From Promethearchaeota archaeon (GTDB lineage Archaea; Asgardarchaeota; Lokiarchaeia; Sigyniarchaeales; SOKP01): DNA of 64,000 nt. The stretch is from the NCBI GenBank assembly GCA_048941285.1, contig JBHLNS010000002.1, positions 64,001 through 128,000 on the forward strand. Direction: 5' to 3'. Below are positions 24,264 to 42,178 of the stretch, piece after piece. The position numbers and the translations under genes were made by a program. The notes below the pieces were generated by a model, which did not search any database, was not told where the DNA came from, and saw only the letters and a list, made by a program, of their open reading frames with translations. Every line of letters begins with the position of its first letter. Positions within the stretch are counted from its first letter, which is position 1.

Positions 24264-25715
24264 TTAACCACTAAATATACTTACTCCTTGGAATCTAGAC
24301 CATGGACCACCATGAGAAATCCACATTGACTGCATATATGGTGCTCCTTTACCACAAACTGGACCATGACCATCAATTCTCCATTCTTTAGTCATCATAT
24401 CTAATCCCCCCCAGAATTCAGGAGTAGCTGCTTGATATATAGTATTTTTCAAAGGTTTCCCTAGTTCACCATTTTTAATTTCATAAGCAATCTGTACGGC
24501 AAATTGGAAATTCATTCTCTTATCGTCAATACTATGAGATTTCCAATTAATACCATATATTCCTTCTTTCGTTTCAGATATAAGTTCATCAACATTTTTA
24601 GGTCCTTGAGGGTCTGGTTCGAGATATAAATTACTCATTCTAATAAGAGGAAATCTATTATATCTGTCAACTCTCGCATTTCCATTACTATACTCTTTAC
24701 CTATAAGCTTAGCTGTTTGCCTATCCGATTGATAATCATTAAAAATCCCTTCTTTTACCACATAAAACTTTTTAGTTTTTACTCCTTCATGGTCATATTT
24801 TTCATGACCTAGAACATAGGGCATTGTTGGATCGCAGATTAAATTCACTTTCTCTGATCCATATTGATAATTAGATCCAAGTTTATCTAAGGTTAGAAAA
24901 CTTGTTCCAGCAAAATCTGCTTCCCATCCCAAAACCCTATCAAGTTCTGAAGGATGCCCACAAGATTCATGAATTGTGAGACCAAGTTGGTATGGCTCTA
25001 ATATAAAAGTTGTTTTTTGAGGTTTAGGAGCGATAGCTTCGGTCGCAAGAATTATTGCTTCAGTTGCAATTTGATCTGATGTTTTTTCAAAATTAAACAT
25101 GTCAATATATTCATAACCTCGCATATCAAACAACATTATATTCCTATTCTGGTTATCCTTTTCAATTGCAGTTGCTGAACAACCAGCACCAGAGAATAAC
25201 TCTTGTTGAGATATCAATGTTCCTTCAGAATTACCATAATTGATATTAATTTTTGCAAAATACATTGAGTTCTCTCTTACTTTAATACTATTGCCTTTTT
25301 CCGCCATTATAGAATCTGCATTCTTCAAAATCTCTATTTTATCTTCTATATCAACCTCAAAGGGATCTATTTTGAAAGAAGTTTCATATGTATCTTTAAT
25401 AATCGGTTCGTCAGTTAGTTGAACTGGATTCTTTATTATTCTACTAGTAGCTTCAGCTTCTTTTACAGCTGCTTCAACTATCTCAGGTAAAATAGATTTA
25501 TCTATGATTGCCGTACTAGCAAAACCCCAAGCTCCATTTTTTAATACACGAATTCCATATCCGATATCTTTAGCTCTCATTAGGTTATCAATTTGTCCAT
25601 TTCTGATCCGTAATTCTTCTACTTCATATCCAAAAAATCTACATTCAGCAAAATCAACATCATTCAATTCTGCTTTTTTTAATGATAAGGAAATAAAATC
25701 TTCCATAGTTATCAA
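24264..25715 (-). CDS. tldD: TldD metalloprotease
   Basis: GIRVLKNGAWGFAS, HESCGHPSELDR, RMSNL, CGKG. Confidence 0.9.
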   Translation of the reverse strand: MITMEDFISLSLKKAELNDVDFAECRFFGYEVEELRIRNGQIDNLMRAKDIGYGIRVLKNGAWGFASTAIIDKSILPEIVEAAVKEAEATSRIIKNPVQLTDEPIIKDTYETSFKIDPFEVDIEDKIEILKNADSIMAEKGNSIKVRENSMYFAKININYGNSEGTLISQQELFSGAGCSATAIEKDNQNRNIMLFDMRGYEYIDMFNFEKTSDQIATEAIILATEAIAPKPQKTTFILEPYQLGLTIHESCGHPSELDRVLGWEADFAGTSFLTLDKLGSNYQYGSEKVNLICDPTMPYVLGHEKYDHEGVKTKKFYVVKEGIFNDYQSDRQTAKLIGKEYSNGNARVDRYNRFPLIRMSNLYLEPDPQGPKNVDELISETKEGIYGINWKSHSIDDKRMNFQFAVQIAYEIKNGELGKPLKNTIYQAATPEFWGGLDMMTKEWRIDGHGPVCGKGAPYMQSMWISHGGPWSRFQGVSIFSG

Positions 25716-25848
25716 GTAAAAATAATATTACATTTAATGAATGAGTTTTTTTAATAATAGTTTTCTTTAATAATTGCATTTTACAAAACTATTATTTTTT
25801 AAATAATAAATCACAATGATTGATTAATATTAATAAGGAGAATAAAAA

Positions 25849-26499
25849 TTGAGAGAAATCATTAAGGATATTTATCATATAGGAGATTCTGGTTGTTCAG
25901 TTTATTTAATACAAACCCATAGTGAAGAAGGTCTGGTTTTAATTGATTGTGGAATGAGTGTTAAGATGATAAAAAAGATTGATAGTATCAATTTAAATCC
26001 AATGGATATTAACCATTGCATTATAACGCATTTCCATATTGATCATATTGCTGCCTGTTATGATCTTAAGCAATTTAACGAAAAAATAAATTTTTATGCT
26101 CATGAGATGGACGCAGACGCAATAGAAGAAGTAGGTCATGATAAAGAAACCGCAGCTAAATGGTATGGAGTGAGTTATAAACCAGTTAAACTTAAAAAAA
26201 GATTGAAAGGTGAACTCGAGACACTTGTTTTCGGTATTTATGATTTTCAATGCATTCATACACCTGGTCATACTCCAGGATCTATTTCAATTCTACTCCA
26301 AACTAAAGAAAACAAAAAAATCTTGTTTGGACAAGATTTGCATGGACCAATTATTCCTGGAGTAAGTAATTATGAGGATTACCAAAATTCATTACGCAAA
26401 CTCCTTGATTTAAAAGCAGATATTTTATGTGAAGGTCATTTTGGGATTTTTCAACCAGCAAGCGAAGTTCAAAGATATATTAAACAATATATAGATTGA
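25849..26499 (+). CDS. MBL-fold hydrolase (glyoxalase II-like)
   Basis: LIDCG, THFHIDH, HTPGHTPGS, CEGHFG. Confidence 0.88.
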   Translation: MREIIKDIYHIGDSGCSVYLIQTHSEEGLVLIDCGMSVKMIKKIDSINLNPMDINHCIITHFHIDHIAACYDLKQFNEKINFYAHEMDADAIEEVGHDKETAAKWYGVSYKPVKLKKRLKGELETLVFGIYDFQCIHTPGHTPGSISILLQTKENKKILFGQDLHGPIIPGVSNYEDYQNSLRKLLDLKADILCEGHFGIFQPASEVQRYIKQYID

Positions 26500-26526
26500 A
26501 TAAGGATTAACTCAAATAAGATTTAC

Positions 26527-27000
26527 TTAAGATTCTGCTTTTTGCTCTTTGCCCGTTATATCAGATATATCCATCCGTAACATTCCCGAATTTTCATAGG
26601 TTTCATCTTTTTTTAGGTACTTATTTCTAATGATATTAGGATCTTGTTCCAATTGATTTAATAGAATATTGAATCCATATTTTTTTTCTTTTAAAGTTTC
26701 TATAATTTCCATTTTTCCTCTAAACACTATTGAGCGAAAGGTTTGACCGCAAGCTTCTTCATACCCATTATCCTCGATGACAGTGCCACACACGTAAGGA
26801 TTCGCTTTTATGAAATCTATTTTTTGCCCTTCTTTTGCGCAATGAAAATATAAAGCATTTTTGGATTCATCATATCCATAACTTAAAGTAATAATGTAAG
26901 GTTCATTCTCTTTAGCCAAAGAAAAAACCGCATATTTTCCTCCTTTTAATAACTCACGTAATTCTTCTGTATTCTTTATTTCCTTTTCAATCCTTCTCAT
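26527..27000 (-). CDS. pyridoxamine 5'-phosphate oxidase-like (NimA-type) flavin-binding protein
   Basis: MRRIEKEI, PYIITLSYGY, LYFHCAKEGQK, SIVFRG, ITGK. Confidence 0.85.
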   Translation of the reverse strand: MRRIEKEIKNTEELRELLKGGKYAVFSLAKENEPYIITLSYGYDESKNALYFHCAKEGQKIDFIKANPYVCGTVIEDNGYEEACGQTFRSIVFRGKMEIIETLKEKKYGFNILLNQLEQDPNIIRNKYLKKDETYENSGMLRMDISDITGKEQKAES

Positions 27001-31812: not shown

Positions 31813-34017
31813 TTACAGAATCTTCTTTAATTCTAATACTAAAGAGGAAGGATTGTATTTATCGAATTTATAAATGGTAGCGTTACCATATTTTTTAAAA
31901 TTCCTCTTAATTTGATCAGCAGAATAAGTATGAACTCCTAATGCGTGAGTTGCATAAGATTTTTTCGGTTCAAGTACAACTAGGTGGATATTTTGTTTTG
32001 ACAATTTTTTTGTTAATTCTTTTAATTCTTTTGTAATCAAGGTATAATCTGTTTCTACCTGCGCAATTAAATCGGGATATTTAACAGAGATATTTGCTCC
32101 GCAATCACTACAAATAAACACAATGGGGATAATATTTCTATCCTTTAACTTTTCTGTTTTTATTAATTCTGAAACTTTTTTTAATGCTGAGGCCATAGGT
32201 GTATAACTTTTTCCTTGTAACTTCTTTAATTTCCTAATAGCCATTTGAAAATTAACCGTTGGTTTTTGTAGAACCACTGCTTCTTTACCTCGAAAAATTA
32301 TTAAAGAAATTTTATCTCTTTTTCTATATCCTTCTCTATGAAGCGATAAAATTACATCTGTCATTTGTTTTATAACATAAAACATAGATGCTGAACTATC
32401 CAAAACAAAAAAGAGAGCTAAAGGTGCGCGATATTCATAAATTTTATCCATTAAATCATATTTATTAAAATGGATAGGAAAATCAACTTCAGTCTGATTA
32501 TATACAGCGTTTTTCAGATAATTTCTAATCGTCGCGTCTAACGCAATGCTTTTCGGCTCATCACGTATTGGGGTCCTGTATGATATATATCTTCCTTTCT
32601 GAGATGAAGAGATTTTAATTCTTCTACCAATTCCTCTTCCCCCATAATCAGATATTTTTCTATCTTTTCTAATATTATCTAAAATCGAAGTCATCTTTTT
32701 TTCAATTTTGTATACAAATGGTAATGATCCATTTTTAGCATCAAAAAATTTAATATCATCATCAAGAGGTATATTCTTTACTTTCCATCCTCCTGCTGGT
32801 CTCGGATTTCGTTTTTGGTTATCTGGATATTTAGGAGGAGGTAATTTTTGTTCTTTAGATTCTGGAATATCAACCTTTTCTGGATCAACAGATTGACGTT
32901 TAAATTCATTTTGTGGCTCATCAGTATGTTTTAACGGGCCCTCTGTTTCTTTGTTGGGTAATAAGATCTGTGTGTTTTCGTATGCTTCTTTTATTTTGCC
33001 ATAGACTTCAGCAATCTTAGCTTTAATTTCTTTAGGTGTTAATTCATAATGGAGTGATTGAATTCTGTGTTCAAATACTAAATCCATGGCAACGTTTAAA
33101 TCACCTTCTGCTATGGTTCTTCTGTTATTTAAGGCAGCATGAGCTCTAGCGCATCTTATAAAAGTGATATCTGCTCTTTGTGAAAAAATTTCTAGCTCAT
33201 TTACAATTTTAGATACAAATTCATAAACAGAACTAGGGATCTGAACTTCTTTAAGGACTTTACGTGCATTGATTATTTTACTTCTTAATTCTTGCTGTTC
33301 AGAGTCATACTTTTTAATAAAATCTTTAGGATTATCATCAAATTCTATTACTCTTTTAGTTATTTCTGCTCTTAATTCTGAATCTCGAGGTGCTTTTATT
33401 GTGACCTCTAATCCAAGACGATCTGCAATTTGTGGTCTCAAATCACCTTCTTCAGGATTCATTGACCCCACCAACACAAATCTTGAAGGATGAGAAATTG
33501 AAATACCTTCTCTTTCTATAATGTTAACTCCTGAAGCAGCAGAATCTAATAAAACATCAACAATATGATCTTGAAGTAGATTTATCTCATCTACGTATAA
33601 AATACCACGATTTGCTTTTGCCAATAAACCAGGATGTAAAGCTCTAATCCCTTCAGTTAGTACCTTGTCTATTGATAAACTTCCACAAACCATGTCTTCT
33701 GTGACCCCTAAGGGGAGATTAACCAATAACATATCCCGAAATTCAGTATCAATTTTACTTTTATCCTTTTTTTCAATACAATTTTGACATAAATTATCAA
33801 TATCAGAATTAGGATCACATGAAAATTCACAATCTTTAATCACTTCAATTTTTGGCATTAATTCAACGAGTGATCTCACAGCAGTACTTTTTCCAGTTCC
33901 TTGTTGACCTGTTAACAAGATTCCCCCAATTTGAGGGTCAATTACATTTAAAACTAAGCCCATTTTCATTTTGTCTTGCCCAAGTATTGCTGTAAATGGA
34001 AAGTTTATTTTTTTCAT
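31813..34017 (-). CDS. chelatase ChlI/ChlD-type AAA+ ATPase fused to vWA domain
   Basis: FPFTAILGQ, GTGKST, PGLLAKANRGILYVDEINLL, MNPEEGDLRPQIADR, Pro-rich linker, MIDAS DSSASM. Confidence 0.88.
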   Translation of the reverse strand: MKKINFPFTAILGQDKMKMGLVLNVIDPQIGGILLTGQQGTGKSTAVRSLVELMPKIEVIKDCEFSCDPNSDIDNLCQNCIEKKDKSKIDTEFRDMLLVNLPLGVTEDMVCGSLSIDKVLTEGIRALHPGLLAKANRGILYVDEINLLQDHIVDVLLDSAASGVNIIEREGISISHPSRFVLVGSMNPEEGDLRPQIADRLGLEVTIKAPRDSELRAEITKRVIEFDDNPKDFIKKYDSEQQELRSKIINARKVLKEVQIPSSVYEFVSKIVNELEIFSQRADITFIRCARAHAALNNRRTIAEGDLNVAMDLVFEHRIQSLHYELTPKEIKAKIAEVYGKIKEAYENTQILLPNKETEGPLKHTDEPQNEFKRQSVDPEKVDIPESKEQKLPPPKYPDNQKRNPRPAGGWKVKNIPLDDDIKFFDAKNGSLPFVYKIEKKMTSILDNIRKDRKISDYGGRGIGRRIKISSSQKGRYISYRTPIRDEPKSIALDATIRNYLKNAVYNQTEVDFPIHFNKYDLMDKIYEYRAPLALFFVLDSSASMFYVIKQMTDVILSLHREGYRKRDKISLIIFRGKEAVVLQKPTVNFQMAIRKLKKLQGKSYTPMASALKKVSELIKTEKLKDRNIIPIVFICSDCGANISVKYPDLIAQVETDYTLITKELKELTKKLSKQNIHLVVLEPKKSYATHALGVHTYSADQIKRNFKKYGNATIYKFDKYNPSSLVLELKKIL

Positions 34018-34144: not shown

Positions 34145-35101
34145 TTAAAATTTCTTCGATAAAGTTTTTAATTTTTTATCCAATCCAGTTACTTCTTCGT
34201 CCCATTTGTGTAGAATGATCTCAATTTTTGGAATAATAGGTTCTTTTTCTTTATATTCCAAATAATCCATAAAATCTTTAATATTCTCAATCCTAACATA
34301 AGTTTCCGCAACAAATTTTCGAATTTCTTGAGCTTGCGATTTAAGAACTTCAGGAATCCTTTTCTTTTCGCCACGATGAGTTAGTGTGGTCAAATATTCT
34401 TCTGTTCCCATTAATAAAGAATTAAATTCGTTTATTTTATCATTAACAAATTTTTCATAAGTTTCTGGAATATTACTTCTTGGAAAAAAACTTGTAATAT
34501 CTATAATAAATTTCTGAGTTGAACTAATCAATTGTTCCATACTCTCGTATCCCTCTATTTTATAATCCACTGAGTGATAGGAGGCTTCGAGACCTCGATT
34601 AATATCGTCCAGTCTAAATATTTTAAAACCTGGATCGTTTTTCAGTTGTTTATCTGGATCTCCCTTTTTATCTGCTACTTCAATCTGGCGTACTAACCTA
34701 GTTGGGTTAAAAACAAGTGAAATTGCCAGAGGATTATTCTGTTGGTAAGAAAGTGTAGTACGGATGTCAATATGACTCATCATTACTTTAAAACCTGGAT
34801 GTGAATGCCACCATCCGATAACAAATTCAGGAGGATCCTTCGAAAATGCTAAATCATCTATTATATACAAGGCTTCATAATCTTCGTCTGCCCATTTATA
34901 TTGATCAATTACAGCGTCTTTATCTAACTCTTGATGCATGATTGGGAAAGCTTCAGAAATAAAAACATCTTCACCATCATTTCGGCCTGTGAAAATTCCA
35001 CTAACTTCTAACCATTCATCCTTCGGAATACGTGCGTTAGCATATCTAACAGCCGCAGCTACTATCGTTAAATAAACTTTTTTAGGGATTATAACAGTCA
35101 T
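34145..35101 (-). CDS. MPN+/JAMM metalloprotease (Rpn11/CSN5-like) with helical C-terminus
   Basis: EVSG; VIGWWHSHPGFKVMMSHID = intact H-x-H-x7-S-x2-D. Confidence 0.88.
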   Translation of the reverse strand: MTVIIPKKVYLTIVAAAVRYANARIPKDEWLEVSGIFTGRNDGEDVFISEAFPIMHQELDKDAVIDQYKWADEDYEALYIIDDLAFSKDPPEFVIGWWHSHPGFKVMMSHIDIRTTLSYQQNNPLAISLVFNPTRLVRQIEVADKKGDPDKQLKNDPGFKIFRLDDINRGLEASYHSVDYKIEGYESMEQLISSTQKFIIDITSFFPRSNIPETYEKFVNDKINEFNSLLMGTEEYLTTLTHRGEKKRIPEVLKSQAQEIRKFVAETYVRIENIKDFMDYLEYKEKEPIIPKIEIILHKWDEEVTGLDKKLKTLSKKF

Positions 35102-35353: not shown

Positions 35354-36001
35354 TTGGCCGAGATTGGCTTTGTGCCCCTTTCTTCTCAGCTTGGTGTCGC
35401 TGGAACAAGTTATAGAATTCAATTGGGAGAAATTAATGAGAAATGGGCAGTGCGCTTATTAAAAGGAAAAGAAGTAATTGATTCATATGTTTTTAAAGAG
35501 GAAGATGTCCAAGGAGATTTTCCAAACCAAAATATTATCGTAGGATGGGTTCTTAGAACTGTGGCAATTCCTAATATTAATCCACATCAAATAATGAAGA
35601 CAACTCAAGCGCTAGTTAAACAAGCAATGAAGAATAAAGAAGAAAAAAAGCTGAAACCTCCCGTTTCAGAAGCTCAAGAAATTGAATTAACAGCTGTTCC
35701 TGAAAGAGAATTAAAAAGACCTCAAGTTCAAGGATGGTTAAAAAGTGAAGATGCAAAATCACAAACAGAAATTGAAGAGGAGCGACGACAAGCCTTTAAA
35801 GCAAGTGTAATGGCAAAAAAGGCAGAAGCCCAAGAATCAGCTTCAACTATTAAAACAACCAGACAATTGCCTTCAATACCTAAAGAGGGGGCACAAGTAA
35901 CAGAGACTGAGGAGAAAGAAGGAGAATTTTGTCCATATTGTGGTAAAGATTTAGGATTTATATTTTGTCCCTTCTGTGGAAAACGCCTTCCGCATGAATA
36001 A
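35354..36001 (+). CDS. protein with globular N-terminus, charged linker and C-terminal zinc ribbon (two CxxC)
   Basis: FCPYCGK..FCPFCGK; TTG start. Confidence 0.8.
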   Translation: MAEIGFVPLSSQLGVAGTSYRIQLGEINEKWAVRLLKGKEVIDSYVFKEEDVQGDFPNQNIIVGWVLRTVAIPNINPHQIMKTTQALVKQAMKNKEEKKLKPPVSEAQEIELTAVPERELKRPQVQGWLKSEDAKSQTEIEEERRQAFKASVMAKKAEAQESASTIKTTRQLPSIPKEGAQVTETEEKEGEFCPYCGKDLGFIFCPFCGKRLPHE

Positions 36002-36184: not shown

Positions 36185-37660
36185 TTGACCTCTGAGAAAA
36201 GTGTAATTATTAAACCCGACGCTTACTATAAGATGCTCCTTCACGTTCTTCGGTTTGGTAATAAAGCAAGAGACCGTAGGCAATTTAGAGAATGTATGGG
36301 CATTCTCATAGGGCATTTAGAGGGTGAACCAGATAAGAAAGGAATAAGGGACGTAATAATTGAGGAAGTCGTCCCGATTTCCCATGGCGGAGCAATAGAA
36401 GTCGCTTTTGCTCCAGAGGATTACGTTACGTTTTCTATGGTTGATGCAAATTATGCAGAAAAAGGATGGTTTAGCTGTGGATGGTACCATAGCCACCCCG
36501 GTCTTGAAATATTTTTTTCTAGCACAGATATAAGAAACCAACTTGGTTGGCAAACTCCGAATCCGAGTGCAATTGGTATTGTTTTTGATCACACGTATTT
36601 GGAAAAACCTGGAGATCTTGGATTTCGCACTTTTAGATTAGATAATCCTAATAAAGGTCAAATGTCAGGTTATCATGAGGTAAAATCGACAGTAGAGCCC
36701 CCCGATAGTATTGAATATTATCTAAAATTAATAGAATTGATAAATTATGTACATTCTCAAGAGCCACCTATATTAGAAATTAATGAAATGCCTGATATAT
36801 TCGGAGATATAGCATTTCCAAGTGAAAGCCAAATTATGGCAAAAAAAGTGGGTTTAAACACAAATTTAATAATTGATACTCTTAAAAATGGTATATCAGA
36901 ATTTTTTGAAATATCTCTCAGACCTTTAATTACTATACTTAACTCTTGGAGTGGGAATATGACAAGATCTATAGTAGAGAATAATCTGCAAATGAGAAAA
37001 GATCTTATTAAAATAAAGGATGTTCTCAGTGAGGGAATTTCAAGTTTACAAAAGGATTTTAAATTTTCATTAAGAGAAAAATTAAATGAACTTGATATGT
37101 ATATTGATGATAAATTTGAAGAATTTGATTCAAATCAAGAATTTTTCAAAACAACCTTTAATCAAATTATAATAGAAATCAACCAACAATTTGATATTTT
37201 ATTTGAACAAGAATTAAAAAGCAGTATAAATAAAATACTAGATTCCATTAATAATTACGCCAATAAATTGGGAGAAATTAATAGCAAAACGTTAGAAACT
37301 TCTGAAAACTTACATTCAATTATGGAACTAGTTGAAAATTTAACAAAAGGCATTAATTTGATGGAAAATTCGTCTTGGGATGTTTTAGAAAGGAAGATTG
37401 GACAATTATCTGAATTATATACAAAAAATTCTAACAGGCTTATAGGTAATTTTATTAATCTCAGTAAAGACTCAAAAAGTTTTCTTTCAGATTTAAAAGC
37501 AGCCATAATATTATTAGAAAGCTCAAAAACCCCAATACAAAATAAAATTGATACACTTGAAATTGAAAATAAGACACTTCAAAAAAGTTTAGCAGAATTA
37601 AAAAAACAAAATGAGGAATTATCAGGTAAGATTAAAAACTATGAAAAGGGAGGAGAATAG
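36185..37660 (+). CDS. MPN+/JAMM metalloprotease with long coiled-coil tail
   Basis: ECMGILIG; GWYHSHPGLEIFFSSTD intact JAMM; heptad-rich C-terminal half. Confidence 0.88.
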   Translation: MTSEKSVIIKPDAYYKMLLHVLRFGNKARDRRQFRECMGILIGHLEGEPDKKGIRDVIIEEVVPISHGGAIEVAFAPEDYVTFSMVDANYAEKGWFSCGWYHSHPGLEIFFSSTDIRNQLGWQTPNPSAIGIVFDHTYLEKPGDLGFRTFRLDNPNKGQMSGYHEVKSTVEPPDSIEYYLKLIELINYVHSQEPPILEINEMPDIFGDIAFPSESQIMAKKVGLNTNLIIDTLKNGISEFFEISLRPLITILNSWSGNMTRSIVENNLQMRKDLIKIKDVLSEGISSLQKDFKFSLREKLNELDMYIDDKFEEFDSNQEFFKTTFNQIIIEINQQFDILFEQELKSSINKILDSINNYANKLGEINSKTLETSENLHSIMELVENLTKGINLMENSSWDVLERKIGQLSELYTKNSNRLIGNFINLSKDSKSFLSDLKAAIILLESSKTPIQNKIDTLEIENKTLQKSLAELKKQNEELSGKIKNYEKGGE

Positions 37661-37665
37661 TTGAA

Positions 37666-39033
37666 ATGAATGAAAAGAACCCGAATAATAAATCTAGCAA
37701 CGTAAACGTCTTTATAAAAAAAGAAGCTTTTAGGAATATGCTAACTCATGTTTTGCGTTTTGGGAGTGAAGTATTAGAAAATAGTGTTGAAGTAATGGGT
37801 ATGTGTTTAGGGAAATTCGACTTAACAGATAACAAAATAATTGTAGATAATGCCATTCCTATAATGCATGGTACACCAGTATCAATAGGATTTTCTAAAA
37901 AAGAAGTTGATTTAATCCAACAAATTGAGAATCAATATAAAAAAACAATTGTAGGTTGGTACCTTTCAAGACCAGGATGGGGACTGGATTTTACAGAAAT
38001 CACGATTGCAAATCATCAATATTTCCAAAATGAGAAATTTCCTCAAGGATTCTGTATAATTTTTGATCATACTTTAATCGGATTAGATGGTAATTTTGGT
38101 TTTGAAATCTTTCAATTGAATAATTATACTAAAACAGAAAAATATACTAGTTTATCATGTGAAATTGAAATTCCCTCTACATTAGAGTATTTTAAGTGGA
38201 TTCAGAAGTTTATGGAAGATTTTAATAAGAAAAACCCTATTCTAATTAAAGAAGTAAATGAAATTGTTGATCAGGTGCCGGGAGATCTTCAGGAGATTCC
38301 AAATACTGAAATAACAGAACAAATTGTGGAGGAATTAGGAAAACATACTGAGCTAACTTCCATTATTTCTGGATTTAAACAGGGTTCTGACAAATTTTCT
38401 CAGATTTTTATGGAAACTTTTCAGCATCAATTAGGGGATTGGATTAACGATATTGAGCAAGGTAATACACGAGGTATAGAATATATTACTAAATCAGTTG
38501 ATAAGATGAAGCAGGCAGTAGTAGCAGGACTTTTAAAGGGAAGTGGATGGTTTAAGAAGACCTTAAATGAATCTTTATATGAATTTAAGAATTCTATATA
38601 TAAATATGTGGAAAAAAGAATAGAGGAACAACAGCAAATCACAGAAGAAATTTCAAATGGTAAAGAAAATCTCGTAAATAATCTAAAAAATCTCATTGGA
38701 GGAAAAATAGAGAATATAGATTCTGAAATAGTAAATTTAACTACCTCTCTAGATCAAAAGTTTGACGAAACTTCCCAGATCAATATTAAAATGGAAGATC
38801 TAATAAAGAAATTGGAAAATAATTTACTCACGATTAATAACCAGACAAATTTATTCACTCAAGAGATTGAAAAGAAAGTAGAATCATCATTAGAACCTTT
38901 ACAGACTAATATTAATGAAAAAACAGAAAAACTGAGTGGAGAATTGGATCCTTTCAGGAATAACTACTCAGAAATACGGACTTTTCTCGATAAACTCCAA
39001 AAAATAATAACTGAATTTCGGAATTTAACTTAA
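37666..39033 (+). CDS. MPN- (inactive JAMM) protein with long coiled-coil tail
   Basis: EVMGMCLG; VGWYLSRPGWGLDFTEIT with both His and the Asp replaced; clearly paralogous to 36185-37660. Confidence 0.85.
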   Translation: MNEKNPNNKSSNVNVFIKKEAFRNMLTHVLRFGSEVLENSVEVMGMCLGKFDLTDNKIIVDNAIPIMHGTPVSIGFSKKEVDLIQQIENQYKKTIVGWYLSRPGWGLDFTEITIANHQYFQNEKFPQGFCIIFDHTLIGLDGNFGFEIFQLNNYTKTEKYTSLSCEIEIPSTLEYFKWIQKFMEDFNKKNPILIKEVNEIVDQVPGDLQEIPNTEITEQIVEELGKHTELTSIISGFKQGSDKFSQIFMETFQHQLGDWINDIEQGNTRGIEYITKSVDKMKQAVVAGLLKGSGWFKKTLNESLYEFKNSIYKYVEKRIEEQQQITEEISNGKENLVNNLKNLIGGKIENIDSEIVNLTTSLDQKFDETSQINIKMEDLIKKLENNLLTINNQTNLFTQEIEKKVESSLEPLQTNINEKTEKLSGELDPFRNNYSEIRTFLDKLQKIITEFRNLT

Positions 39034-39041
39034 AATTTAAT

Positions 39042-39320
39042 TTAAACAAATTCTAATTTAGAAACTTTAGAAATATGTAATTTATATTTAGGAATATTGG
39101 TATTTAATCTCTTTAATTCATTTAACTTGGCTATTTTACTTAGAATTCGCCCTATTTTATCAACCTTTATATCGACACCAAAAGATTCCTTCAAAACGCT
39201 ATTAATTTTATAAGAAGAGAGGATTACAACACTTGAGATATTTTTTTCACAGAGTAACTCAATTGCTCTCCTAACTAACTGAATAAGTGTTTCTCTGCTT
39301 TGGTTTTGATTTATATCCAT
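39042..39320 (-). CDS. small basic winged-helix-like protein
   Basis: 92 aa; KIGRILSKIAKLNEL helix followed by a wing-like strand. Confidence 0.6.
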   Translation of the reverse strand: MDINQNQSRETLIQLVRRAIELLCEKNISSVVILSSYKINSVLKESFGVDIKVDKIGRILSKIAKLNELKRLNTNIPKYKLHISKVSKLEFV

Positions 39321-39627: not shown

Positions 39628-39706
39628 TAATACACCCTCCCCTTTTATGAAATTTTAAATGTTCTCACATACAACATATAATTATAATAACTTTTTAATT
39701 TTAAAT

Positions 39707-42178
39707 ATGTCTGGTAAGCAATCGAATTCTAATTCTTCAAAAAAGTCAAATACATCTGAGCATAAAGCAGAAGCTAAAAGAAAAAAACAGCAATTTAAAC
39801 CAGTAAAATTACGCAAGATTTCAAAACCGGGAAAATTAGGAGTAAGATATAAGCTTAAAGATTACATTACACAACAAAGGATAAAGATAGGAAATTTAAA
39901 ATCTAGAGTTAAAACTCGATTTTATGATAAAATAATACATCAAGAAGTTTATATAGGCGGTAAGGAGCCAAAATCCTATTGTTATGAAAAGAAATTTTGG
40001 GGACTATATGGAATATTTATTTTTTATTCTCTAATCTTAATTATAGCAATTAATATTCCAGAAAGCACATGGATTCAATTTTTAATGTTTGGGAATCCGT
40101 TTGCTTTTTCAAATACAATTATAGCATTCCTACTAGTATTATCCTTCTTATTCAGTATAGATAAAGTGAGAATTTTTATTTTCGAGGAAAAATCTGCTCT
40201 TAAGCAGTTTATATTATATGTAACTCTTATTGGCATATTGTACGTTCTTTTTCTATATATTGGTACGAGTATCAACTTTCTAACATATTTGCTTACATTG
40301 GCAATGATTTGGTTAATTTTGTTAAGTAGTCGGTTTTATATTTATTCGAGGAAGTTTGCAACGAAAATTGAAGCAAGGTTTATTAAAAAATATTCAATTC
40401 CTAGACGTTTTTTTGCCATGATAATTCCCTTTTTTATACTAGGAGTGCTTGTAGTAATATCATTGTTTTATCGGAGTTTTTTGGTATGGTTATCTTTAGA
40501 TATTTTTGGAGCTGCTGATCCCAGTAATGCAGTGAAAGTGTATAATCTTCAAATGCGGCAGGTGATGCCCTTAATATACTTTAGTTTAGTAATGACACTA
40601 ATGTTCATTATTTTCGAATTTGTTTTTTCAAGAAAACGAGCAGAAACTAAAAGAGCAGGTACCTTTGATAATTTTACTTTTTCATTAATAGTCTTTTTCA
40701 TTTTTTTCTTTCAAATTCTGCAAATAAGTATTTACATGATGCTTCAAGACTCTACTATTGATGCTTTTAAATCAACAATTGGAGCGACAGGCTCAGCTGT
40801 TTCCTATATTTTTATATTCGAGTTTATAATTTCTATGTACTTCTTATATCGAATTGTACGGAAACTTGGTAGAAGTTTAGGATGGAGAATTTTTTTCTTT
40901 AAGAAAGATGGGTTGATATTATTAAGCTTAGCTTGCGTATTCGCTCAAACATTAACACGTTTTACTCTTTCTCCCGATGTTCAAATATCTAATCAGATAA
41001 TATCTGATGTTGGTACATTTTTAATGGCTGATAAGTATATTATTTCTGTGTTAATGATTTTTTTCCTAGGTAGCACATTATTAATCTATTATCTCAAACC
41101 TCAAGAAACCTCAATGTTTATGAGATTACAAAAAGAAACCGTAATGGAAGAAGAAAGAAGCATGGACCGGGTTTATAAAATAATAAGGGGAGAATACATT
41201 AGAAGAGGTGAAGCATACCCGATTGAAATCATTGAAAGAGAATTAATCAAAGCAACTCAATTATCAAAAACCAATATATATGCAGTCTTGGAAGAATTAG
41301 CTAAAAAAGATATGGATATTCTTTTAACAGAAAAAAAAAATGAGTTTGGAAAACCTATTAAAATGATTGATTTTGTATCTGTAACTGAGCGTTTCGAAAA
41401 AAAAGGGCTTGCTCAACAAAAAGCTAGAAGATATTTAAGTGAAAGATTATATGAAACAGCAATAGAGAAGAAAAGTAGAACTAGCAGGTTAAGTACTGAT
41501 AACGAAGTTGATGAGCCTTCAGATACTTTTATCTCATCACTTACCACTCATTATGAAAAGAAAGAAAGAGATAAGGAATTACGTCAAAAAAAATTAAGAA
41601 GCACACAAATTAGGTTCACAGAATTCGACATTTCTTTAAAAGATAAAATTAAAGAGATTATAAGAAAAGAATATATTTATCGAATTGAAAACCCAGAAAA
41701 AATAGAAGAAATATCCATTCCTATCTCTGAAATTTCTAGTCAAATTGAAAGAAGATTAAAAATTAATCCCGGTGAATTTTATCTTCTTTTAGAAGATTTA
41801 AGTAATAACGATATAGAATTATCATTAATTGATAATCCTGAAGAACCTGAAGATAAAAAGATTTTATTCTTACCATTCCTAGATAAGGGTATGAGTTATT
41901 CCTTAGCTAATTTTAGACCTGAGGAATATTCCAATTTTAGAATCTCTATTATTAAAAACTTTTTAAAAGCTCTTAAAACAAAGAAAGAAAAAAGAATACT
42001 CTATCAATTAAAGAAAGAGATCAATGAGCAAACCGAGACTCAAAAATCTTGGAATTACTTATTAAATACTTTATATAAATATTATCCACTATACACGGAA
42101 CAAATTTTTCAAGTTCCAAATACACAAAAGCTATTAGACCAGTTAGAAAAATGGAAAAGGGTATTTAATGAGAATTAG
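39707..42178 (+). CDS. large multi-pass membrane protein with basic N-terminus and duplicated C-terminal soluble domain
   Basis: About 10 TM segments then two related repeats (KIIRGEYIRR.. / EIIRKEYIYR..); probable start ATG 39707. Confidence 0.8.
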   Translation: MSGKQSNSNSSKKSNTSEHKAEAKRKKQQFKPVKLRKISKPGKLGVRYKLKDYITQQRIKIGNLKSRVKTRFYDKIIHQEVYIGGKEPKSYCYEKKFWGLYGIFIFYSLILIIAINIPESTWIQFLMFGNPFAFSNTIIAFLLVLSFLFSIDKVRIFIFEEKSALKQFILYVTLIGILYVLFLYIGTSINFLTYLLTLAMIWLILLSSRFYIYSRKFATKIEARFIKKYSIPRRFFAMIIPFFILGVLVVISLFYRSFLVWLSLDIFGAADPSNAVKVYNLQMRQVMPLIYFSLVMTLMFIIFEFVFSRKRAETKRAGTFDNFTFSLIVFFIFFFQILQISIYMMLQDSTIDAFKSTIGATGSAVSYIFIFEFIISMYFLYRIVRKLGRSLGWRIFFFKKDGLILLSLACVFAQTLTRFTLSPDVQISNQIISDVGTFLMADKYIISVLMIFFLGSTLLIYYLKPQETSMFMRLQKETVMEEERSMDRVYKIIRGEYIRRGEAYPIEIIERELIKATQLSKTNIYAVLEELAKKDMDILLTEKKNEFGKPIKMIDFVSVTERFEKKGLAQQKARRYLSERLYETAIEKKSRTSRLSTDNEVDEPSDTFISSLTTHYEKKERDKELRQKKLRSTQIRFTEFDISLKDKIKEIIRKEYIYRIENPEKIEEISIPISEISSQIERRLKINPGEFYLLLEDLSNNDIELSLIDNPEEPEDKKILFLPFLDKGMSYSLANFRPEEYSNFRISIIKNFLKALKTKKEKRILYQLKKEINEQTETQKSWNYLLNTLYKYYPLYTEQIFQVPNTQKLLDQLEKWKRVFNEN

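Follow-up and report, generated by a model that had tools for sequence, protein, structure and literature searches.

The 64,000-nucleotide (nt) stretch of Promethearchaeota DNA analyzed here (the window; positions 64,001 to 128,000 of the forward strand of contig JBHLNS010000002.1, assembly GCA_048941285.1) encodes two adjoining MPN-domain proteins, which we designated A and B. We consider it probable that the two form a paralogous heterodimer, with A as its one obligate catalytic head and B as a partner that can do without its own active site, which has degenerated repeatedly. Heterodimers of the MPN+/MPN- type are characteristic of the eukaryotic ubiquitin machinery, namely of the proteasome lid, the COP9 signalosome and BRISC/BRCA1-A. 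A third MPN paralog was designated C, the neighboring genes Z, S, T and V, and the source genome G000. The features of the pair, with positions in the window, lengths in amino acids (aa) and the mean predicted local distance difference test score (pLDDT) of monomer models, are:

36185..37660, plus strand: gene A, MPN+ (JAMM) protein of 491 aa, TTG start; MPN core at about aa 1-192, followed by a helical tail
36488..36529, plus strand: intact JAMM zinc motif of A, H102-S-H104...S112..D115 (HSHPGLEIFFSSTD)
36896..37645, plus strand: helical tail of A, aa 238-487 (from a monomer model of mean pLDDT 65.5)
37649..37655, plus strand: GGAGGAG, a Shine-Dalgarno-like site for B within the 3' end of A, 10 nt ahead of the B ATG
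37666..39033, plus strand: gene B, MPN protein of 455 aa with a degenerate zinc site in G000, ATG start; MPN core at about aa 11-190, followed by a helical tail
37867..38037, plus strand: active-site segment of B, about aa 68-124; mosaic, its phylogeny being at odds with that of the remainder of the gene
37963..38004, plus strand: degenerate motif of B, L100-S-R102...T110..T113 (LSRPGWGLDFTEIT), where an intact site has H-x-H...S..D
38350..39027, plus strand: helical tail of B, aa 229-454 (from a monomer model of mean pLDDT 70.6)

Both proteins pass the cut-off of the Pfam JAB/MPN family PF01398 (22.5 bits), A with 42 bits (expect value, E, 9.1e-11) and B with 39.4 bits (E 5.9e-10), and BLASTP aligns them with each other at 27% identity over 325 residues (E 4e-31). 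They have the motifs AYYKMLLHVLRFG / AFRNMLTHVLRFG and IVFDHT / IIFDHT in common. Because their alignment extends ca. 130 residues past the MPN core, into the tail, the protein that was duplicated already had a tail. The catalytic and zinc-binding set of A consists of E36 together with the H102 to D115 motif; in the B protein of G000 the glutamate is retained (EVMG), and the ligands have changed from His to Leu, His to Arg and Asp to Thr, alongside a Ser to Thr replacement. A preliminary description of this locus had reported two paralogous MPN genes 5 nt apart with a GGAGGAG site inside the first, a full JAMM motif in the first protein, and loss of both His and the Asp, with the Glu kept, in the second. 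All of these features, including the common motifs that it quoted, were located in the two open reading frames (ORFs); gene C, an MPN+ paralog on the minus strand at 34145..35101, was absent from its list.

The 5-nt spacer (37661-37665) and the Shine-Dalgarno-like site suggest that A and B are carried on a single transcript. Part of the stretch is contained in 20 sequencing runs, one of which is an RNA library. Contigs from that library, which may have DNA content, cover parts of Z (35359-35726) and 230 nt of B (38547-38776), and none in this one RNA library lies on A or spans the A-B junction. Fused A-B proteins were not found at E <= 1e-10 among longer forms of 861-2455 aa, a null result of little weight.

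Zinc-site states and mosaic structure of B

The zinc site of A is invariant. E36, H102, H104, S112 and D115 are present in 26 of 26 alignment rows, and the motif is intact in the best 120 of 404 database relatives of A (120/120) and in all genus copies scored (n=22, leaving out G001, which is cut by a contig end, and G008, in which the gene is split into two ORFs). B behaves differently: among the copies from G000 and 23 other genomes of the genus, 17 of 24 are intact (mostly HSHPSWGLYLSESD), six are fully degenerate and one, from G012, is partial. The fully degenerate copies, from G000, G007, G002, G004, G013 and G018, all carry the cassette [LIN]SRPGWGLDFT[ED]IT. Of 210 database relatives of B, the best 120 show the same range of states: 66 are intact, 24 lack one or two ligands, 28 lack all three and two are truncated. 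Losses in other genera take several forms, comprising replacement of Glu by Gln (G242), loss of the first His (G280 and G189), loss of the first His and the Asp (G202) and loss of everything (G181), and a tree of 118 B proteins requires four or more switches between an intact and a non-intact site. B does not hold the MPN- state constantly, and on this point the preliminary description is not supported: the zinc ligands are absent from the B protein of G000, and most members of the ortholog group have them. A site that is invariant in A while being intact, partial or degenerate in B fits an arrangement in which A is the catalytic subunit and B a scaffold.

Every degenerate cassette has Arg in place of the second His, and the Tyr five residues on has become Asp (Glu in one case), as seen when SRPGWGLDFT is set against SHPSWGLYLS. 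To judge from these residues, the place once taken by zinc might be occupied by an Arg-Asp pair (B residues 100-113, 37963-38004).

Interruptions of A-type genes were observed at a few loci. In G008 (L050 5998-7547) A is split into ORFs of 232 and 261 aa, with one in-frame TGA reported. In genera g21 and g22 (e.g., G199, G203, G198, G269, G260 and G241) one or two in-frame stops, mostly TGA, fall within the A-type match, and the same places are also listed with long open frames; these stops could be due to alignment run-over, sequencing errors or recoding.

Among pairs of degenerate copies, the ratio of nonsynonymous to synonymous substitutions (dN/dS, Nei-Gojobori) was 0.14-0.22 over the full length of B and 0.06-0.17 in its MPN domain. 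The corresponding values were 0.19-0.24 and 0.09-0.38 among pairs of intact copies, and A gave 0.08-0.21. The B frame (438-471 aa) is open in every ortholog examined, and the degenerate cassette is near-identical between clades that are ca. 40% identical overall. The MPN core of B (residues 11-190) was modeled with a pLDDT of 66-90 in 10-residue blocks, and its best fold match is Rpn11 (4o8x_B, template modeling [TM] score 0.73-0.75 on the target). Given the low dN/dS, the open frames, the conserved cassette and the confident fold model, the B protein of G000 is a conserved pseudoenzyme rather than the product of a decaying gene. Decay confined to this genome had been named in the preliminary description as a way in which its proposal could fail; the loss of ligands is neither decay nor confined, with six degenerate copies in the genus and dN/dS of 0.06-0.22. 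We therefore give almost no credence to B as a decaying pseudogene: its lost catalytic residues and its branches, which are longer than those of A, would be expected of one, but the selection values already contradict it, as do the uninterrupted frames, the fold model and the one RNA-library contig on B.

The six degenerate copies do not form a single lineage over the full length of the gene. In the full-length B tree, the degenerate copies of G000 and G007 are sister to the intact copy of G011 (support 99), and the other four belong to a distant clade. Sliding identity localized the conflict: outside alignment columns ca. 80-140, G000 is ca. 0.7 identical to G011 and 0.3-0.45 to the distant clade, whereas within these columns, which contain the active-site region, its identity is 0.41-0.65 to the distant clade (G002 and G013) and 0.38-0.65 to G011. 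A tree of 53 core columns, from which the four catalytic columns had been removed, united the six degenerate copies (support 82) with G012 as their sister (91). In approximately unbiased (AU) tests of groups defined only once the trees were known, a single clade of the six degenerate copies was rejected outside the core (p 1.9e-7), and a clade of G000, G007 and G011 was rejected inside it (p 0.00135). A second mosaic, P0146, is 0.43-0.49 identical to its backbone relative P0149 in core windows and up to 0.81 identical to P0224 of the degenerate clade; outside the core it is 0.6-0.9 identical to P0149 vs. 0.2-0.6 to the distant degenerate clade. The degenerate cassette was found in three separate backbones. 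The simplest reading of these alignments is that the active-site cassette moved between lineages by homologous recombination at least twice, whichever way the transfers ran. Convergent change once catalysis had been lost explains them less well, since several of the shared states (GWY, PG and F) look ancestral.

Predicted complex and helical tails

Complex models of full-length A and B, built from their own alignments, gave a median score of 0.62 (runs of 0.62, 0.63 and 0.45), whereas the best of three for the controls was 0.00; the score mark that we used is reached by 58 of 80 solved complexes and by 2 of 110 mismatched pairs. Between runs, 48% or more of the contacts recur, and the partner pLDDT is at least 66. 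The confident contacts in the model are pseudo-symmetric, made by helix alpha-1 (A 11-29, B 22-37), a short segment (A 139-145, B 138-144) and the first post-core helix (A 170-195, B 167-193), and the tails lie side by side (A 274-383, B 271-387). The portion of the BRCC36-KIAA0157 study consulted here describes a pseudo-two-fold dimer centered on helix alpha-1, with an additional alpha-4/alpha-5 bundle (PMC4579573); as far as that portion goes, the A-B model uses the same elements, namely helix alpha-1 and a post-core helical bundle.

The tails had been called long coiled coils in the preliminary description. Long helices are supported by the models, whereas a heptad coiled coil is not: averaged over ortholog alignments, hydrophobicity in the tails of both A and B has a period of 3.6-3.65 residues, and the power at the classical heptad period of 3.5 vs. 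that at 3.65 is 7.3 vs. 70.1 for A and 11.7 vs. 128.4 for B. On account of this period, we regard the tails as amphipathic helices of the hendecad/apolipoprotein type. The B tail matches the Pfam apolipoprotein family PF01442 weakly, below the cut-off (E 4.9e-6), and in searches with the B family profile, ApoA-IV reached E 5.2e-10 and apolipophorin-III E 7.9e-5. The likeness to these apolipoproteins concerns the tails only, in which it consists of weak profile matches and an amphipathic period of ca. 3.65; it may reflect composition and periodicity alone, so that lipid binding is a lead only. The amphipathic tails, together with a conserved neighbor, T, that reads as a multi-pass membrane protein, raise the idea that the modeled complex may work at a membrane or lipid surface.

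Neighboring genes

The A-B arrangement is conserved. A B ortholog was found in 23 of the 24 other genus genomes searched, and an A-type gene lies directly upstream of it in all 23; the remaining genome, G003, has no B ortholog with B as the query (best E 9.5e-9), and with A as the query G003 and G233 gave matches of only ca. 1e-22 to 1e-25. Ten loci were examined from eight further genera of the family, and in nine of them A directly adjoins B. Further families of the order have tandem pairs too (G026, G030, G037, G170 and, twice, G039), and solo copies are present in family f4 and in the class-level families f6 and f7. The pair is thus syntenic in relatives; a lack of synteny would have counted against the preliminary description. 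When 400 genomes of the phylum were searched with A, with three candidates scored per genome, strong orthologs were found in all 134 genomes of the family and in parts of the order, weaker ones in the class, and similarity at the level of the MPN domain only in the rest of the phylum. Close public relatives are labeled as Promethearchaeota or Lokiarchaeia metagenome-assembled genomes, under product names that go no further than "Mov34/MPN/PAD-1 family", "hypothetical" and "proteasome lid subunit RPN8/RPN11".

In two distant genomes, the A-type gene is immediately preceded by a third, short MPN copy whose motif is fully degenerate (L046 6098-6838 in G039, 246 aa, and L065 1558-2163 in G178, 201 aa), and some lineages may have a three-member MPN array. 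At the G202 locus (L070 2819-8866), the ORFs that lie between A and B encode 174, 420, 297 and 336 aa; they could be an insertion.

The genes surrounding the pair in the window are:

31813..34017, minus strand: gene V, 734 aa, ChlI/ChlD-type AAA+-VWA fusion, with Pfam matches and a match below the cut-off to TIGR02442 "putative cobaltochelatase" (E 1.2e-177)
34145..35101, minus strand: gene C, third MPN+ paralog, 318 aa, with a shorter helical tail and motif WWHSHPGFKVMMSHID; divergent from Z
35354..36001, plus strand: gene Z, 215 aa, conserved neighbor upstream of A and in its orientation; C-terminal CxxC...CxxC zinc ribbon
39042..39320, minus strand: gene S, 92 aa, no known family, conserved neighbor, convergent with B
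39659..42178, plus strand: gene T, 839 aa, no known family, conserved neighbor

The full V-C-Z-A-B-S-T set, with V and C on one strand, Z, A and B on the other, and then S and T, is present at 18 of the 23 genus loci; four of the other five are cut by contig ends, and G006 has no V and C there. Z, S and T are beside the pair in most of the ten loci from other genera of the family, V and C in some.

Gene C lies ca. 1 kb upstream of A, to which it is 33% identical (E 7e-27), and all 16 full-length orthologs have an intact motif; four split copies and loci truncated at the end of a contig are not among these 16. In most genomes of the genus C is one ORF of 301-322 aa; in G005, G016, G014 and G004 (L035, L036, L037 and L049) it is split into ORFs of ca. 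105-114 and 212-213 aa, which may stem from a frameshift, faulty assembly or genuine decay of the gene.

Z is directly upstream of A across the family, and its C-terminus is a CxxC-x8-CxxC zinc ribbon, the sole match of this protein in Pfam, NCBIfam and PADLOC and one that falls below the cut-off; its atlas cluster is hypothetical and restricted to Promethearchaeota. Small zinc fingers bind ubiquitin in eukaryotes, and Z is for this reason a candidate substrate-recognition partner. S and T have no match in Pfam, NCBIfam or PADLOC. T belongs to a lineage-specific hypothetical atlas cluster and reads, by eye and without a predictor, as a hydrophobic, multi-pass membrane protein; a T-like gene also adjoins the pair in another family (G039). 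V adjoins C in several genera. Its membership in the system is unsupported, since it is chelatase-like and missing near the pair in genus g12 and in other families, and it probably stands outside. A defense-system reading, raised by PADLOC matches of the tails to ZorA, LmuB and JetC, was rejected because these are weak matches to long helices.

Origin, alternative explanations and meaning

We compared eukaryotic MPN families with the locus through scores against solved structures, and the trees were built without eukaryotic sequences. The best solved relatives of A are archaeal CsRpn11 (E 1.3e-8, the best sequence match among solved structures), Rpn11 (1e-6), CSN5 and BRCC36; in Foldseek searches its best match was BRCC36 (6gvw_B, E 4.2e-10), and Rpn11 (4o8x_B) gave a TM score of 0.68 on the target. 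B matches Rpn11 (E 2.6e-5), and C matches CSN5 (E 2.9e-10). The B family profile scores Rpn11 (1.9e-13), CSN5 (4.2e-13), CsRpn11 (7.7e-13) and BRCC36 (1.5e-9) well ahead of Rpn8 (only 1.6e-4). Of the eight PF01398 matches in G000, one is the MPN gene of a ubiquitin operon on contig C41, which matches Rpn11 at E 7.3e-17. Because this gene is far closer to Rpn11, A, B and C are divergent extra paralogs and not the operon deubiquitinase. In a tree of 38 rows, A with the upstream copies of other families (Shimodaira-Hasegawa-like approximate likelihood-ratio test [SH-aLRT] 95) and B with the downstream copies (85) are sister clades (91), and the solo copies of f4, gene C and the ubiquitin-operon MPN fall outside the A/B duplication. 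The duplication therefore took place inside one Asgard order, and the loss of ligands in B is younger still.

The preliminary description had left open whether the pair is ancestral to the eukaryotic heterodimers or convergent with them. Since the duplication lies inside one archaeal order, the pair is convergent with the eukaryotic MPN+/MPN- pairs, and B is no ortholog of Rpn8, CSN6 or Abraxas. That the pair is the ancestor of Rpn11-Rpn8, CSN5-CSN6 and BRCC36-Abraxas is very improbable. The match of both proteins to the eukaryote-type family PF01398 and to Rpn11, CSN5 and BRCC36 structures speaks for it, but the within-order duplication, with the solo copies of neighboring families outside it, speaks against it, as does the nearness of the B profile (ca. 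1e-13) to MPN+ proteins rather than to Rpn8. The ubiquitin-operon MPN is closer to Rpn11 than either A or B, strong orthologs do not reach beyond one family and part of the order and class to which it belongs, and the MPN- state arose within a genus.

Among the closest known systems, BRCC36 with KIAA0157 or Abraxas, the core of BRISC and BRCA1-A, joins an MPN+ enzyme to an MPN- paralog-like partner, as is predicted for A-B. A-B has no orthology to it, differs in its far longer tails (ca. 250 residues, period 3.6-3.65) and in a B that is intact in most relatives, and has no known partners like BRCC45 or MERIT40. Rpn11-Rpn8 and CSN5-CSN6 also have the eukaryote-type MPN fold and an active beside an inactive subunit, and Rpn11 and CSN5 are top sequence and fold matches of A and B; however, B resembles the active subunits and not Rpn8 or CSN6, and no PCI scaffold was found nearby. 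PCI (PF01399) matches were weak only, on C66, C39, C47, C14, C91 and C32 and none on C30, the contig of the window, and such weak matches also ring in 4 of 14 control genomes; scaffold partners of a proteasome lid or COP9-signalosome-type complex are thus not encoded with the pair. CsRpn11 of Caldiarchaeum subterraneum (PDB 6fjv/6fju), the best sequence match of A among solved structures, is short, stands alone and lies beside a ubiquitin operon, and its equivalent in G000 is the gene on C41; A and B, in contrast, are long-tailed and lie outside any ubiquitin operon. The canonical operon of G000 (MPN, E2, E1 and Ub) lies at ca. 1168-6311 of C41 and has the Rpn11-like MPN and three ubiquitin-fold matches. 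A second group on C40 (ca. 25119-26922 and 37456-37659) contains a 176-aa MPN, an E1 and an E2-like gene.

In the arrangement that we favor, A and B would be co-transcribed sister paralogs that probably associate as a pseudo-symmetric heterodimer, their MPN cores packing through helix alpha-1 and the first post-core helix and their amphipathic tails pairing alongside, as in the model. A would be the catalytic JAMM zinc isopeptidase, to judge from its intact motif and fold. B would serve in a structural or regulatory capacity, able to dispense with a zinc site of its own yet retained by selection. The likely substrate would be a conjugate of the organism's own ubiquitin-like protein, a view favored by the presence of ubiquitin, E1 and E2 genes on other contigs of the same genome; because the pair lies outside the ubiquitin operon, the substrate is a guess. 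Several points weigh against this arrangement, for which the support is computational throughout. The predicted MPN interface is no more conserved than the rest of the domain (entropy 1.05 vs. 0.82 in A, permutation p 0.96; 1.30 vs. 1.44 in B, p 0.18), so that this check adds no independent support to the interface of the heterodimer first proposed in the preliminary description. The three controls of the complex model did not include A-A or B-B homodimers, and the pass may reflect solved MPN dimers known to the predictor. No ubiquitin, E1 or E2 match of G000 falls on C30. In G202, A and B are ca. 6 kb apart, with four ORFs of at least 100 aa between them. Finally, B has all of its ligands in most relatives, which makes a two-enzyme pair or independent enzymes the commoner state.

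Some of these points would also be explained if A and B worked separately, possibly as homodimers built on the same helices, with B in a non-catalytic job such as binding a ubiquitin-like protein or some other partner, a role known for certain eukaryotic MPN- domains, and adjacency reflecting co-regulation only. The unremarkable interface, the missing homodimer comparison and the separated genes of G202 are all consistent with this, and the solo copies in related families indicate that the ancestor worked without a paralogous partner. The portion of the CsRpn11 report consulted here describes an archaeal Rpn11-like deubiquitinase that is a homodimer in the crystal, through helices H1 and H4 (PMC6043591). 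Nevertheless, the tight 5-nt spacing, the adjacency kept across genera and families, the passing heterodimer model with controls at 0.00 and the tail homology retained in both proteins make separate work rather unlikely. It is also conceivable, though distinctly less plausible, that both proteins are catalytic in most lineages, as a two-headed enzyme, and that the degenerate B of G000 is a neutral variant with no regulatory role. The intact motif in 17 of 24 genus orthologs and 66 of the best 120 database relatives, and the graded series of states from one to all ligands lost, are what such an enzyme would leave behind. Against it stand the conservation of the degenerate cassette across divergent clades, purifying selection on degenerate MPN domains that is as strong as that on intact copies, and the occurrence of the cassette in three separate backbones, which together suggest that the cassette is kept rather than tolerated. 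Weighing these points, we retain the heterodimer with one obligate head in A as the probable reading.

The kind of system represented by the pair is known from eukaryotes. No description of an archaeal MPN+/MPN- pair was found in the full-text literature, with subscription journals and supplementary files outside the scope of the search, and the literature searched likewise yielded no archaeal version that evolved independently, is encoded in an operon and occurs with active, intermediate and dead partners. Because the A/B duplication is lineage-specific, the locus has no bearing on the origin of the eukaryotic complexes; it is richer in detail than a simple archaeal Rpn11-Rpn8 and less relevant to eukaryogenesis than the preliminary description had hoped. 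What it offers is a prokaryotic, operon-encoded and independently evolved version in which active, intermediate and dead partners exist among close relatives. We tentatively suggest, as a possibility that we hold with less than even confidence, that B is a pseudoenzyme in the making, with active, half-dead and dead forms in one family and a dead cassette that is conserved under selection and has been moved between species by recombination on two or more occasions. On that view, selection and exchange could set how many live catalytic heads an A-B complex has, and the MPN+/MPN- architecture known from eukaryotes would be an end point readily attained, to which evolution came anew in this lineage. 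These natural variants make it testable how and why a catalytic paralog becomes an activating or scaffolding pseudoenzyme.

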